A stretch of 38,759 nt of DNA, from NCBI RefSeq assembly GCF_003334255.1, contig NZ_QOWU01000056.1; one strand, given 5' to 3'. Under the pieces are notes generated by a model. The model searched no databases. It worked only from the letters and a program-made list of their open reading frames with translations, and was not told the origin of the DNA. The stretch is from Escherichia coli (GTDB taxonomy: Bacteria; Pseudomonadota; Gammaproteobacteria; Enterobacterales; Enterobacteriaceae). The translations under genes were made by a program, and so were the position numbers. This document shows positions 15,070 through 34,672 of the stretch, in pieces. Position 1 is the stretch's first letter. The number at the start of each line of letters is the position of its first letter.

Positions 15070-15513
15070 ATGGCAGATATCACTCTTATCAGCGGCAGCA
15101 CCCTCGGCGGTGCCGAATATGTAGCAGAACACCTGGCTGAAAAGCTGGAAGAGGCGGGTTTTACCACCGAAACGCTGCACGGTCCGCTGTTAGAAGATTT
15201 ACCTGCCTCAGGGATCTGGCTGGTTATCAGCTCCACCCACGGTGCCGGAGATATTCCGGACAACCTTTCTCCTTTCTATGAAGCATTGCAGGAACAGAAG
15301 CCCGATCTTTCTGCAGTCCGCTTTGGCGCAATCGGTATTGGCAGTCGTGAATATGACACCTTTTGTGGGGCTATCGATAAACTCGAGGCAGAACTCAAAA
15401 ATTCCGGTGCAAAACAGACAGGCGAAACACTGAAGATCAACATTCTTGATCACGACATTCCGGAAGATCCGGCAGAAGAATGGCTGGGATCGTGGGTTAA
15501 TTTACTCAAATAA
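15070..15513 (+). CDS. mioC: flavodoxin-like FMN-binding protein MioC
   Basis: 147-aa ORF immediately flanking oriC, transcribed toward it. Confidence 0.95.
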   Translation: MADITLISGSTLGGAEYVAEHLAEKLEEAGFTTETLHGPLLEDLPASGIWLVISSTHGAGDIPDNLSPFYEALQEQKPDLSAVRFGAIGIGSREYDTFCGAIDKLEAELKNSGAKQTGETLKINILDHDIPEDPAEEWLGSWVNLLK

Positions 15514-15529
15514 GTATACAGATCGTGCG

Positions 15530-15805
15530 ATCTACTGTGGATAACTCTGTCAGGAAGCTTGGATCAACCGGTAGTTATCCAAAGAACAACTGTTGTTCAG
15601 TTTTTGAGTTGTGTATAACCCCTCATTCTGATCCCAGCTTATACGGTCCAGGATCACCGATCATTCACAGTTAATGATCCTTTCCAGGTTGTTGATCTTA
15701 AAAGCCGGATCCTTGTTATCCACAGGGCAGTGCGATCCTAATAAGAGATCACAATAGAACAGATCTCTAAATAAATAGATCTTCTTTTTAATACCCAGGA
15801 TCCCA
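15530..15805. other. oriC: chromosomal replication origin oriC
   Basis: DnaA boxes R4 (15536..15544, TGTGGATAA), R3 (15575..15583, TTATCCAAA), R2 (15610..15618, TGTGTATAA), R5/M (15661..15669, TCATTCACA), R1 (15716..15724, TTATCCACA); three AT-rich 13-mers at 15738..15750, 15753..15765, 15769..15781; ~14 GATC sites in ~290 bp; BamHI site 15798..15803; mioC/gidA flanks. Confidence 0.97.
15738..15795. repeat. oriC DNA-unwinding element: three tandem 13-mers (GATCTnTTnTTTT family, here on minus strand) plus AT cluster
   Basis: CTAATAAGAGATC / AATAGAACAGATC / AAATAAATAGATC read directly from the sequence. Confidence 0.9.
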
Positions 15806-15891: not shown

Positions 15892-17781
15892 ATGTTTTAT
15901 CCGGATCCTTTTGACGTCATCATCATTGGCGGGGGTCATGCAGGCACCGAGGCCGCGATGGCCGCGGCGCGTATGGGTCAACAGACTCTGCTTTTGACAC
16001 ACAATATCGACACTCTGGGGCAGATGAGCTGCAACCCGGCGATCGGCGGTATTGGGAAGGGACATCTGGTAAAAGAAGTGGATGCACTCGGCGGTCTGAT
16101 GGCGAAAGCGATCGATCAGGCGGGTATCCAGTTTAGGATACTAAACGCAAGCAAAGGACCGGCGGTTCGCGCTACCCGAGCTCAGGCGGATCGTGTGCTC
16201 TACCGTCAGGCGGTACGTACGGCGCTGGAGAACCAACCGAACCTGATGATCTTCCAGCAGGCGGTTGAAGATCTTATTGTCGAAAACGATCGCGTGGTCG
16301 GTGCTGTTACCCAAATGGGACTGAAGTTCCGTGCCAAAGCCGTCGTGCTCACCGTTGGGACGTTCCTCGACGGTAAAATTCATATCGGTCTGGATAATTA
16401 CAGCGGTGGCCGTGCTGGTGATCCGCCGTCCATTCCGCTTTCTCGCCGTTTGCGTGAACTGCCGCTGCGCGTTGGTCGTCTGAAAACCGGGACACCACCG
16501 CGTATTGATGCTCGAACCATCGACTTTAGCGTACTGGCGCAACAGCATGGCGATAACCCAATGCCGGTATTCTCGTTTATGGGCAATGCGTCCCAGCATC
16601 CCCAGCAGGTGCCGTGTTATATCACTCATACCAACGAGAAAACCCATGATGTGATCCGCAGTAACCTCGATCGTAGCCCAATGTACGCAGGGGTGATCGA
16701 AGGTGTCGGCCCACGCTACTGCCCGTCGATCGAAGACAAAGTCATGCGCTTCGCCGACAGAAATCAGCATCAGATCTTCCTTGAACCGGAAGGACTGACC
16801 TCTAATGAAATTTATCCGAACGGTATCTCCACCAGCCTGCCGTTCGATGTGCAGATGCAAATCGTCCGCTCTATGCAGGGGATGGAAAACGCGAAGATCG
16901 TGCGTCCGGGTTATGCCATTGAGTATGACTTCTTCGATCCTCGCGACCTGAAACCGACGCTGGAGAGCAAGTTTATCCAGGGGCTGTTCTTTGCTGGTCA
17001 GATTAACGGCACTACCGGTTACGAAGAAGCCGCTGCGCAAGGTTTGCTGGCCGGTCTTAACGCTGCCCGTCTGTCTGCTGACAAAGAAGGTTGGGCTCCG
17101 GCACGTTCTCAGGCGTATCTCGGCGTACTAGTTGATGACCTGTGCACTTTAGGAACCAAAGAACCGTATCGTATGTTTACTTCGCGCGCAGAATATCGTC
17201 TGATGCTACGCGAAGATAATGCGGATCTGCGTTTGACTGAAATCGGTCGTGAACTGGGCCTGGTGGATGACGAACGTTGGGCGCGCTTTAACGAGAAACT
17301 TGAGAATATCGAGCATGAGCGTCAGCGTCTGAAATCGACCTGGGTAACCCCGTCGGCGGAAGCTGCAGCCGAAGTGAATGCTCACCTGACTGCGCCGCTT
17401 TCCCGTGAAGCCAGTGGTGAAGATCTGCTGCGTCGTCCGGAAATGACTTATGAAAAATTAACCACGCTGACGCCGTTTGCCCCTGCGTTGACAGACGAAC
17501 AGGCGGCGGAACAGGTTGAGATTCAGGTTAAATACGAAGGTTATATCGCGCGCCAGCAAGATGAGATCGAAAAGCAGCTGCGTAACGAGAACACCCTGCT
17601 ACCCGCGACACTGGATTACCGCCAGGTATCCGGTCTTTCTAACGAAGTGATCGCCAAACTTAACGATCACAAACCAGCCTCTATCGGCCAAGCTTCGCGT
17701 ATTTCTGGCGTCACGCCTGCGGCCATCTCCATTCTGCTGGTGTGGCTGAAAAAACAGGGTATGCTGCGTCGTAGCGCATAA
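15892..17781 (+). CDS. mnmG: tRNA uridine 5-carboxymethylaminomethyl modification enzyme MnmG (GidA)
   Basis: 629-aa ORF starting [22 protein letters not shown] (FAD-binding GxGxxG). Confidence 0.96.
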
Positions 17782-20636: not shown

Positions 20637-21107
20637 GTGAATCTTAACGCAACAATCCTCGGCCAGGCCATCGCGTTTGTCCTGTTCGTTCTGTTCTGCA
20701 TGAAGTACGTATGGCCGCCATTAATGGCAGCCATCGAAAAACGTCAAAAAGAAATTGCTGACGGCCTTGCTTCCGCAGAACGAGCACATAAGGACCTTGA
20801 CCTTGCAAAGGCCAGCGCGACCGACCAGCTGAAAAAAGCGAAAGCGGAAGCCCAGGTAATCATCGAGCAGGCGAACAAACGCCGCTCGCAGATTCTGGAC
20901 GAAGCGAAAGCTGAGGCAGAACAGGAACGTACTAAAATCGTGGCCCAGGCGCAGGCGGAAATTGAAGCCGAGCGTAAACGTGCCCGTGAAGAGCTGCGTA
21001 AGCAAGTTGCTATCCTGGCTGTTGCTGGCGCCGAGAAGATCATCGAACGTTCCGTGGATGAAGCTGCTAACAGCGACATCGTGGATAAACTTGTCGCTGA
21101 ACTGTAA
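20637..21107 (+). CDS. atpF: F0F1 ATP synthase subunit b
   Basis: 156-aa ORF (GTG start), N-terminal TM helix followed by long charged coiled coil. Confidence 0.96.
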
Positions 21108-21121
21108 GGAGGGAGGGGCTG

Positions 21122-21655
21122 ATGTCTGAATTTATTACGGTAGCTCGCCCCTACGCCAAAGCAGCTTTTGACTTTGCCGTCGAACACCAAAGTGTAGAAC
21201 GCTGGCAGGACATGCTGGCGTTTGCCGCCGAGGTAACCAAAAACGAACAAATGGCAGAGCTTCTCTCTGGCGCGCTTGCGCCAGAAACGCTCGCCGAGTC
21301 GTTTATCGCAGTTTGTGGTGAGCAACTGGACGAAAACGGTCAGAACCTGATTCGGGTTATGGCTGAAAATGGTCGTCTTAACGCGCTCCCGGATGTTCTG
21401 GAGCAGTTTATTCACCTGCGTGCCGTGAGTGAGGCTACCGCTGAGGTAGACGTCATTTCCGCTGCCGCACTGAGTGAACAACAGCTCGCGAAAATTTCTG
21501 CTGCGATGGAAAAACGTCTGTCACGCAAAGTTAAGCTGAATTGCAAAATCGATAAGTCTGTAATGGCAGGCGTTATCATCCGAGCGGGTGATATGGTCAT
21601 TGATGGCAGCGTACGCGGTCGTCTTGAGCGCCTTGCAGACGTCTTGCAGTCTTAA
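21122..21655 (+). CDS. atpH: F0F1 ATP synthase subunit delta
   Basis: 177-aa ORF; operon position. Confidence 0.96.
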
Positions 21656-21667
21656 GGGGACTGGAGC

Positions 21668-23209
21668 ATGCAACTGAATTCCACCGAAATCAGCGAACTG
21701 ATCAAGCAGCGCATTGCTCAGTTCAATGTTGTGAGTGAAGCTCACAACGAAGGTACTATTGTTTCTGTAAGTGACGGTGTTATCCGCATTCACGGCCTGG
21801 CCGATTGTATGCAGGGTGAAATGATCTCCCTGCCGGGTAACCGTTACGCTATCGCACTGAACCTCGAGCGCGACTCTGTAGGTGCGGTTGTTATGGGTCC
21901 GTACGCTGACCTTGCCGAAGGCATGAAAGTTAAGTGTACTGGCCGTATCCTGGAAGTTCCGGTTGGCCGTGGCCTGCTGGGCCGTGTGGTTAACACTCTG
22001 GGTGCACCAATCGACGGTAAAGGTCCGCTGGATCACGACGGCTTCTCTGCTGTAGAAGCAATCGCTCCGGGCGTTATCGAACGTCAGTCCGTAGATCAGC
22101 CGGTACAGACCGGTTATAAAGCCGTTGACTCCATGATCCCAATCGGTCGTGGTCAGCGTGAATTGATCATCGGTGACCGTCAGACAGGTAAAACCGCACT
22201 GGCTATCGATGCCATCATCAACCAGCGCGATTCCGGTATCAAATGTATCTATGTCGCTATCGGCCAGAAAGCGTCCACCATTTCTAACGTGGTACGTAAA
22301 CTGGAAGAGCACGGCGCACTGGCTAACACCATCGTTGTGGTAGCAACCGCGTCTGAATCCGCTGCACTGCAATACCTGGCACCGTATGCCGGTTGCGCAA
22401 TGGGCGAATACTTCCGTGACCGCGGTGAAGATGCGCTGATCATTTACGATGACCTGTCTAAACAGGCTGTTGCTTACCGTCAGATCTCCCTGCTGCTCCG
22501 TCGTCCGCCAGGACGTGAAGCATTCCCGGGCGACGTTTTCTACCTCCACTCTCGTCTGCTGGAGCGTGCTGCACGTGTTAACGCCGAATACGTTGAAGCC
22601 TTCACCAAAGGTGAAGTGAAAGGGAAAACCGGTTCTCTGACCGCACTGCCGATTATCGAAACTCAGGCGGGTGACGTTTCTGCGTTCGTTCCGACCAACG
22701 TAATCTCCATTACCGATGGTCAGATCTTCCTGGAAACCAACCTGTTCAACGCCGGTATTCGTCCTGCGGTTAACCCGGGTATTTCCGTATCCCGTGTTGG
22801 TGGTGCAGCACAGACCAAGATCATGAAAAAACTGTCCGGTGGTATCCGTACCGCTCTGGCACAGTATCGTGAACTGGCAGCGTTCTCTCAGTTTGCATCC
22901 GACCTTGACGATGCAACACGTAAGCAGCTTGACCACGGTCAGAAAGTGACCGAACTGCTGAAACAGAAACAGTATGCGCCGATGTCCGTTGCGCAGCAGT
23001 CTCTGGTTCTGTTCGCAGCAGAACGTGGTTACCTGGCGGATGTTGAACTGTCGAAAATTGGCAGCTTCGAAGCCGCTCTGCTGGCTTACGTCGACCGTGA
23101 TCACGCTCCGTTGATGCAAGAGATCAACCAGACCGGTGGCTACAACGACGAAATCGAAGGCAAGCTGAAAGGCATCCTCGATTCCTTCAAAGCAACCCAA
23201 TCCTGGTAA
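21668..23209 (+). CDS. atpA: F0F1 ATP synthase subunit alpha
   Basis: 513-aa ORF with Walker A GDRQTGKT. Confidence 0.98.
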
Positions 23210-23259
23210 CGTCTGGCGGCTTGCCTTAGGGCAGGCCGCAAGGCATTGAGGAGAAGCTC

Positions 23260-25532
<2,273 letters not shown>

Positions 25533-25552
25533 CGCCTTAATCGGAGGGTGAT

Positions 25553-25972
25553 ATGGCAATGACTTACCACCTGGACGTCGTCAGCGCAGAGCAACAAATG
25601 TTCTCTGGTCTGGTCGAGAAAATCCAGGTAACGGGTAGCGAAGGTGAACTGGGGATCTACCCTGGCCACGCACCGCTGCTCACCGCCATTAAGCCTGGTA
25701 TGATTCGCATCGTGAAACAGCACGGTCACGAAGAGTTTATCTATCTGTCTGGCGGCATTCTTGAAGTGCAGCCTGGCAACGTGACCGTTCTGGCCGACAC
25801 CGCAATTCGCGGCCAGGATCTCGACGAAGCGCGAGCCATGGAAGCGAAACGTAAGGCTGAAGAGCACATTAGCAGCTCTCACGGCGACGTAGATTACGCT
25901 CAGGCGTCTGCGGAACTGGCCAAAGCGATCGCGCAGCTGCGCGTTATCGAGTTGACCAAAAAAGCGATGTAA
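25553..25972 (+). CDS. atpC: F0F1 ATP synthase subunit epsilon
   Basis: 139-aa [22 protein letters not shown]. Confidence 0.97.
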
Positions 25973-25990
25973 CACCGGCTTGAAAAGCAC

Positions 25991-26028
25991 AAAAGCCAGT
26001 CTGGAAACAGGCTGGCTTTTTTTTGCGC
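25991..26028 (+). terminator. rho-independent terminator of the atp operon
   Basis: AAAAGCCAGTCTG-GAAA-CAGGCTGGCTTTTTTTT: near-perfect stem with tetraloop and 8-T run. Confidence 0.85.
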
Positions 26029-26324
26029 GTGTGACCCGTCCTGAATAGCGTTCACATAGATCCTGCTGATATAAAACCCCCCTGTTTTCCTGTTTATTCA
26101 TTGATCGAAATAAGAGCAAAAACATCCACCTGACGCTTAAATTAAGGTACTGCCTTAATTTTCTGCAGACAAAAGGCGTGACGATGGTCGAAAATGGCGC
26201 TTTCGTCAGCGGGGATAATCCGTTATTGAACAATTTATCCTCTGTCCATTTCACGATGAAAAAAATGTAGTTTTTTCAAGGTGAAGCGGTTTAAATTCGT
26301 TCTCAAATTACAGTCAGGACGCGT

Positions 26325-31123: not shown

Positions 31124-32976
<1,853 letters not shown>

Positions 32977-32994
32977 TATTGCTGACACGGTTTT

Positions 32995-33032
32995 CCCCTC
33001 ACCCTAACCCTCTCCCCAGAGGGGCGAGGGGA
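32995..33032. repeat. GC-rich imperfect palindrome (CCCTCACCCTAACCCTCTCCCCAGAGGGGCGAGGGGAC), possibly a boxC-type intergenic repeat
   Basis: Read from the sequence in the pstA-pstB spacer; family assignment is tentative and from memory. Confidence 0.35.
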
Positions 33033-33074
33033 CCGACCGAGCGCCTTTTTGACTCTGTACACGGTTAACACTTT

Positions 33075-33108
33075 GCCGGATGCGGCGTGAACGCCTGATC
33101 CGGCCTAC
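33075..33108 (+). repeat. REP element between pstA and pstB
   Basis: GCCGGATGCGGCGTGAACGCCTGATCCGGCCTAC is a near-canonical REP sequence. Confidence 0.85.
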
Positions 33109-33119
33109 GGTAAGCCTGA

Positions 33120-33932
<813 letters not shown>

Positions 33933-33946
33933 TTCAGGAGTGCGTT

Positions 33947-34672
33947 ATGGACAGTCTCAATCTTAATAAACATATTTCCGGCCAGTTCAACGCCGAACTG
34001 GAAAGTATCCGCACGCAGGTGATGACCATGGGCGGCATGGTGGAGCAGCAGCTTTCTGATGCAATCACCGCGATGCATAACCAGGACAGCGATCTGGCGA
34101 AGCGCGTGATCGAAGGCGACAAGAACGTCAACATGATGGAAGTGGCGATCGATGAAGCCTGCGTGCGCATTATCGCCAAACGTCAGCCGACGGCGAGCGA
34201 CCTGCGACTGGTTATGGTGATCAGTAAAACCATTGCCGAGCTGGAGCGTATTGGCGACGTGGCGGACAAAATCTGCCGTACTGCGCTGGAGAAATTCTCC
34301 CAGCAGCATCAGCCGTTGCTGGTAAGTCTGGAGTCGCTGGGCCGTCATACCATCCAGATGCTGCACGACGTGCTGGACGCGTTCGCGCGGATGGACATTG
34401 ACGAAGCGGTACGTATTTATCGTGAAGATAAAAAAGTCGATCAGGAATACGAAGGTATTGTTCGTCAACTGATGACCTACATGATGGAAGATTCGCGCAC
34501 TATTCCGAGCGTACTTACCGCGCTGTTCTGTGCGCGTTCAATCGAACGTATCGGCGACCGCTGCCAGAATATTTGTGAGTTTATCTTCTACTACGTGAAG
34601 GGTCAGGATTTCCGTCATGTAGGCGGTGATGAGCTGGATAAACTGCTGGCGGGAAAAGATAGCGACAAATAA
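33947..34672 (+). CDS. phoU: phosphate signalling negative regulator PhoU
   Basis: 241 aa starting [20 protein letters not shown]; ORF track has a 6-codon upstream extension. Confidence 0.93.

Follow-up and report, generated by a model that had tools for sequence, protein, structure and literature searches.

A long open reading frame antisense to atpA in Escherichia coli is almost certainly a non-coding by-product of atpA codon bias

Long open reading frames (ORFs) on the strand opposite to annotated bacterial genes have been read both as statistical by-products and as genuine genes. On one side, long frame -1 ORFs were described by Merino et al. in 1994, as related by Mir et al. (2012; PMC3454372), who in section 11 of their paper also cite the observation of Silke (1997) that highly expressed genes statistically cause such ORFs; Mir et al. 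themselves hold that codon bias does not account for all long frame -1 ORFs (PMC3454372). Opposite-strand "shadow ORFs" are one class of spurious ORF catalogued in AntiFam (PMC3308159). On the other side stand candidates for genuine antisense overlapping genes, among them olg1 and olg2 of Pseudomonas aeruginosa, which lie in frame -1 and are backed by RNA-seq, Ribo-seq and mass spectrometry (Kreitmeier et al. 2022; PMC8850804). In E. coli K-12, the genome-wide translation-reporter screen PIRT-Seq has yielded more than 200 putative new coding sequences together with their host genes (PMC12350097).

Here we analyse a 559-codon ORF that runs antisense to atpA, the gene for the alpha subunit of the F1 ATP synthase, in a 38,759-nucleotide stretch of E. 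coli DNA (contig NZ_QOWU01000056.1; hereafter the window) carrying the plus-strand gene array mnmG-rsmG-atpIBEFHAGDC-glmUS-pstSCAB-phoU. An earlier sequence-only reading had called attention to the length of this frame and to similar frames over neighbouring genes, and had taken them for shadow ORFs caused by codon bias. For the atpA frame, every test that we applied (reading frame, codon counts, dependence on expression class and lack of conservation) supports that reading, and we hold it to be almost certain that the ORF is a non-coding by-product of the codon bias of atpA.

The ORF listing of the window confirms the 559-codon frame at 21521..23200 on the minus strand, with a TTG start at 23200 and a TGA stop at 21523-21521. 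The complete stop-free span is somewhat longer, reaching over 578 codons (21524..23257, minus strand), with an antisense TGA triplet at either end (21521-21523 and 23258-23260). The former is the reverse complement of atpH codon 134, the only TCA in that gene, and thus terminates the ORF; the latter corresponds to a sense-strand TCA triplet overlapping the atpG ATG. Relative to atpA (21668..23209, plus strand, 513 codons) the ORF lies at offset 0, that is in frame -1, each antisense triplet lying exactly opposite a single atpA codon. The same alignment holds for the last 45 codons of atpH (21122..21655, plus strand), the gene for the delta subunit. It exceeds the 513 codons of atpA because atpH and atpA share one frame across a 12-nt spacer that contains no antisense stop. 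The ORF thus lies wholly inside bona fide genes of the opposite strand. The region 21400-23300 was matched in 5,424 of 5,426 complete E. coli genomes at an identity of at least 98.9%, and in these 5,424 genomes the RefSeq annotation of the region consists of atpH, atpA and atpG, with nothing antisense. Among the 5,428 places matched, a single one was non-chromosomal: NZ_CP134388.1, a 28,451-bp record of E. coli TUM11352 labelled as a plasmid, holds the 3' half of atpA together with atpG once more, adjoining tnaB, and may represent a chromosomal fragment or an assembly artefact.

In a codon-aligned antisense frame the stops TAA, TAG and TGA can arise only opposite the sense codons TTA (Leu), CTA (Leu) and TCA (Ser), respectively. 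These are codons that, after Ikemura and Sharp & Li, are decoded by minor tRNAs in E. coli. None of the three occurs among the 513 codons of atpA, and the opposite strand is open through the whole gene for that reason. The 46 Leu codons of atpA comprise 37 CTG, four CTC, three CTT and two TTG, and its 32 Ser codons comprise 16 TCC, 11 TCT, two AGC, two AGT and one TCG. We infer that selection on codon usage is the cause of the open frame. Under this mechanism, translational selection in the highly expressed atpA would drive Leu towards CTG and Ser towards TCC and TCT, would thereby purge exactly the three minor codons TTA, CTA and TCA, and would leave the opposite strand readable from end to end; the open run is prolonged by another 46 codons through the in-frame atpH and the stop-free spacer.

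The sequence-only reading had noted that the frame lacks a start context, and the case proved stronger than stated. No ATG occurs in frame anywhere in the 559 codons, because atpA uses no CAT codon, and none of the four TTG or GTG codons within the first 120 codons is preceded by a Shine-Dalgarno sequence. A scan of 21300-23500 for promoter and terminator consensus sequences gave counts at or below those expected from shuffled sequence; the single promoter-like site detected, where 1.5 were expected, is located inside the ORF. The absence of recognisable domains was likewise borne out, as scans of the 559-aa translation against Pfam and NCBIfam gave nothing even when the thresholds were lax, and a look-up of its exact sequence, in the TTG-start form, among about 15 billion proteins was negative. 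The one description that did not hold was that of a low-complexity composition. The antisense peptide is skewed rather than simple: it is rich in Thr (11.1%), Phe (8.6%), Cys (4.5%), Gln and Asn and poor in Lys (1.1%), Pro (0.5%), Trp and Met (0%), while its entropy of 3.98 bits per residue is close to that of AtpA (4.05) and its fraction of low-entropy windows is equal.

How surprising the length of the ORF appears depends on the null model. In random sequence of the composition of the window, about 1.5e-8 such ORFs would be expected; with the AtpA residues held fixed and synonymous codons chosen uniformly, the probability of encountering no antisense stop is 2.3e-11, and with the average codon usage of the window it is 2.5e-5. 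The picture changes when codons are drawn from genes of the same expression class, the probability rising to 0.016 with the usage of the other atp genes, 0.069 with that of atpD alone, 0.079 with that of the atp, pst and phoU genes together, and 0.09 with that of the ribosomal, tuf, fus, rpo and sec genes of strain MG1655. Such expression-matched nulls predict 2.4-4.0 antisense stops in atpA, and the corresponding probabilities of observing none (0.016-0.09) are lowish for one gene and unremarkable only when it is considered that many highly expressed genes are candidates. The length of the ORF is thus beyond naive chance yet unremarkable under a highly-expressed-gene null: given the residues and codon usage of the host, the excess is significant under the naive nulls only. 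Permutation of codons within atpA was uninformative, there being no stop-generating codon in the gene that could be moved.

Two MG1655 regions served as a same-genome control. There, open runs in the aligned antisense frame reach 991 codons in rpoB, 844 in rpoC and 528 in fusA, and they span all 394 codons of both tufA and tufB as well as many ribosomal-protein genes. Longer shadows than the one over atpA thus exist in the genome, namely those over rpoB and rpoC. The combined rate of TTA, CTA and TCA is 3.97 per 1000 codons in the MG1655 genes for the translation and transcription machinery, against 31.5 per 1000 codons in the weakly expressed gsp, chiA, birA, coaA and yjaZ.

The same dependence on codon usage is visible within the window. 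In every strongly biased gene (mnmG, atpH, atpA, atpG, atpD, atpC, pstS, pstC, pstA, pstB and phoU) the longest antisense open run lies in the aligned frame, extending over 328 codons in mnmG, 514 in atpA, 190 in atpG, 197 in atpD, 140 in atpC, 289 in pstC, 208 in pstA, 258 in pstB and 203 in phoU, whereas the weakly biased genes at the ends of the window contain 8-24 TTA, CTA or TCA codons each and have their longest antisense run outside the aligned frame. The further shadows named in the sequence-only reading were all found in the ORF listing, on the minus strand: 299 aa over mnmG (16141..17040), 245 aa over atpF and atpH (20744..21481), 206 aa over atpD (24939..25559), 252 aa over pstC (31217..31975), 212 aa over pstA (32350..32988), 264 aa over pstB (33105..33899), a gene that is also devoid of TTA, CTA and TCA, and 181 aa over phoU (33923..34468). 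All are codon-aligned with their host genes except the one over atpF and atpH, which is aligned over 360 nt of atpH and lies at offset 2 over 364 nt of atpF. The codon-bias explanation proposed for these frames accordingly stands for the aligned ones and fails for the atpF half of the latter; the aligned shadows over mnmG, atpD, atpH, pstCAB and phoU have the same trivial cause as that over atpA.

Two open stretches of about 120-141 codons in the window, both at offset 2 on the minus strand and hence not aligned, are left unexplained by the TTA/CTA/TCA rule. One is the atpF portion just mentioned (20744-21107) and the other is a second antisense ORF over pstA (32646..33071). Both look like ordinary chance ORFs, since non-aligned runs of comparable length (for example 151, 149 and 132 codons) occur elsewhere in the window. 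A different kind of feature underlies part of a 241-aa antisense ORF at 25529..26254. Within it, in the spacer between atpC and glmU and opposite in orientation to the atp and glm genes, we found a full-length Rfam match to STnc410, an enterobacterial sRNA family (26084-26241, minus strand; 188 bits against a gathering score of 50), so that what part of this "shadow" overlaps is an sRNA locus instead of a protein-coding gene. Upstream of mnmG (15892), three DnaA-box matches (TTATCCACA, TTATACACA and again TTATCCACA) are clustered at 15536-15724, between that gene and an ORF ending at 15513, and the cumulative GC skew of the window reaches its minimum at 14-16 kb; judged from these sequence features, the cluster is consistent with the chromosomal origin oriC.

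Frame-specific conservation, which the sequence-only reading had named as evidence that would speak against a shadow ORF, was sought by comparisons of frame openness, of peptide identity, of variation within E. coli and of OLGenie-style substitution ratios, and none was found. We compiled 80 gammaproteobacterial atpA loci with 73-96% protein identity, of which 78 full-length orthologues were scored for openness. Of the 78, 16 have a fully open aligned frame on the antisense strand, all of them with a GC3 of at least 0.61; none of the 56 orthologues with GC3 below 0.6 does. Even the nearest relatives, with 95-96% AtpA identity, carry 1-7 antisense stops: one each in Mangrovibacter, Brenneria and Pseudescherichia vulneris and seven each in Klebsiella sp. 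and Yersinia. Across loci, the fraction of Leu and Ser codons that generate antisense stops in atpA follows that in atpD (rho = 0.96) and atpG (rho = 0.95) and falls with GC3 (rho = -0.91). At 0.230 it lies between the values for atpD (0.265) and atpG (0.203), so that atpA shows no depletion of its own; of 15 loci with an open atpA frame, 14 have an open atpD and 13 an open atpG. E. coli atpA is unusual solely in being open at a GC3 of 0.54, an exception that suggests, for this species, codon selection linked to expression and not GC content as the cause.

At the peptide level, AtpA has a median identity of 0.84 over 55 gap-free orthologues, and its antisense counterpart one of 0.50. The antisense value exceeds a null obtained by permuting the synonymous codons of each orthologue among sites with the same residue (0.435; median z = 4.5). 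We rejected this excess as evidence for coding, because atpD and atpG, in which stops already interrupt the E. coli antisense frame, show an equal or larger one (0.088 for atpA against 0.103 for atpD at paired loci), and because it fades out (z < 1.5) in the most divergent loci. Both features indicate synonymous divergence that is not yet saturated, and not antisense coding.

Within the species, we compared atpA among eight divergent E. coli strains, all of which encode an identical AtpA protein (WP_001176745.1). The 42 distinct variant codons are consequently all synonymous in the sense frame, and 38 of them alter the antisense peptide, including such radical replacements as R>W, C>R, E>K, G>R and N>Y. 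The share of variants that are also synonymous in the antisense frame (4 of 42, or 9.5%) is what would be expected without constraint on the antisense peptide, the corresponding figure over all possible sense-synonymous single changes being 8.1%. Antisense stops are created by none of the 42 variants, although uniform mutation would lead one to expect about 2.7 (P ~0.06), an absence that selection against rare codons predicts equally well.

OLGenie-style ratios were pooled over 12 Enterobacterales pairs that have one reference in common. For atpA, dNN/dNS was 0.55 (CI 0.31-0.92), nominally below 1, and dSN/dSS was 0.85 (CI 0.68-1.12); the corresponding values were 0.82 and 1.04 for atpD, and 1.22 and 0.57 (0.43-0.81) for atpG. 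As atpG returns a "significant" dSN/dSS despite its broken frame, these ratios evidently leave 1 without coding and are unreliable in frame -1. The comparison was also stratified by codon position and by transition or transversion. The deficit of transversions at position 3 is similar in atpA (0.47) and in the controls (0.57) and is thus an effect of codon bias. At position 1 the transversion stratum gave an NN/NS ratio of 0.50 for atpA against 1.09 for the controls, but when distinct sites were counted the comparison became 11/264 versus 15/254 (p = 0.42). The nominal signal is explained by pseudo-replication, the 12 pairs sharing one reference, together with the exchangeability of the AtpA residues involved: the changes counted as "NS" are conservative exchanges between Ala and Ser, Ser and Thr, or Gln and Glu, whereas NN-type codons mostly encode Leu, Ile, Val, Phe and Met. 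The ratio of 0.55 was therefore rejected as a sign of purifying selection, and after stratification and distinct-site counting no constraint peculiar to the antisense frame is left.

These results bear on the possibility that the frame, or part of it, is a genuine antisense overlapping gene, transcribed and translated from a start codon other than ATG and encoding a young, Escherichia-restricted protein comparable to those proposed in EHEC or to olg1 and olg2. Several observations could be read in its favour: all eight divergent E. coli strains keep the frame uninterrupted and retain the same TTG; olg1 and olg2 are likewise in frame -1 and measure about 1-1.5 kb (PMC8850804); a naive synonymous resampling of the kind used for those genes returns 2.3e-11 here; the pooled dNN/dNS is nominally below 1; and Mir et al. 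(PMC3454372) consider codon bias insufficient for some long frame -1 ORFs. Against this, the frame has neither an in-frame ATG nor a Shine-Dalgarno sequence at the TTG and GTG codons of its first 120 codons, there is no enrichment of promoter-like sites, neither a domain nor a deposited homologue was found, polymorphism within E. coli, with its radical replacements, equals the expectation without constraint, and the frame is broken in the nearest genera. The expression-matched null accounts for the length, which rpoB and rpoC surpass, and the dNN/dNS signal vanishes once distinct sites are counted. Nor do published surveys, which bear indirectly on the antisense translation that the sequence-only reading had also named as refuting evidence, lend support: the PIRT-Seq table of new coding sequences (PMC12350097, S.Table2) has no entry in atpA, atpD, atpH or atpG, the main text of an antisense overlapping-gene survey of E. 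coli mentions no atp gene (bioRxiv 10.1101/2020.11.18.388249), and our literature search for an antisense product of atpA returned nothing relevant. We therefore consider a genuine gene very improbable and infer that the frame opposite atpA is untranslated. A weaker variant, in which some antisense segment is translated at a low level from a non-canonical start, whether as pervasive translation or as a very young proto-gene, and contributes slightly to the absence of TTA, CTA and TCA, seems to us just as hard to credit; what room there is for it comes from the lack of stop-creating polymorphisms (0 of 42 against about 2.7 expected, P ~0.06).

It could also be argued that the frame is open through mutational or GC-content bias and not through expression-linked translational selection. 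Across species the relation of openness to GC3 is indeed strong (rho = -0.91 for the stop-generating fraction), and every other fully open orthologue has a GC3 of at least 0.61 and belongs to loci where atpD and atpG tend to be open too. For the orthologues of Pseudomonas and Xanthomonadales this explanation is right. It is not right for E. coli atpA, whose GC3 is only 0.54, a range in which none of the 56 other orthologues is open; furthermore, weakly expressed E. coli genes are 8-fold richer in TTA, CTA and TCA than highly expressed ones in the same genome and the same window, so that the depletion is specific to a gene class and not compositional. As an account of the E. coli frame we thus give compositional bias next to no credence and retain codon selection linked to the high expression of atpA.

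Set beside the described systems, the ORF resembles the frame -1 shadow ORFs of highly expressed genes (Merino 1994; Silke 1997; Mir 2012; AntiFam) in all respects: it is fully overlapped by a real gene from which TTA, CTA and TCA are missing, its length scales with the codon bias of the host, and it has no independent conservation, start signals or homologues. We see no substantive difference from these, the atpA case being merely long (559 or 578 codons, depending on the boundaries) and aided by the frame of atpH. Shadow ORFs of this kind are an already known phenomenon, of which the present one is a textbook case without sign of independent function. With olg1 and olg2 and the antisense genes of E. 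coli O157:H7 (PMC9927249) it has in common that it is long, antisense to an annotated gene and taxonomically restricted and, in the case of olg1 and olg2, that it lies in frame -1 and is of similar length. Those candidates, however, come with antisense transcription start sites, Ribo-seq signal, peptides detected by mass spectrometry and reported purifying selection. In the atpA frame, start signals are absent and constraint is undetectable, and the biased codon usage of its highly expressed host explains how long it is. The hosts of olg1 and olg2 (tle3 and PA1383) are, unlike atpA, not housekeeping genes of the highly expressed class.

The antisense ORF of atpA is accordingly a negative result, and neither its annotation nor its pursuit as a gene is warranted. 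Its wider significance lies in how readily it mimics a positive one. Synonymous resampling with uniform or genome-average codons makes this non-coding ORF look wildly significant (2e-11 to 2e-5), and the value obtained here with a "Frameshift"-type uniform-codon test (P = 2.3e-11) is of the order quoted for olg1 and olg2 (p < 1e-10; PMC8850804). Resampling of this type does not discriminate where the host gene is strongly codon-biased, and claims of antisense overlapping genes in such hosts need expression-matched nulls and control genes.
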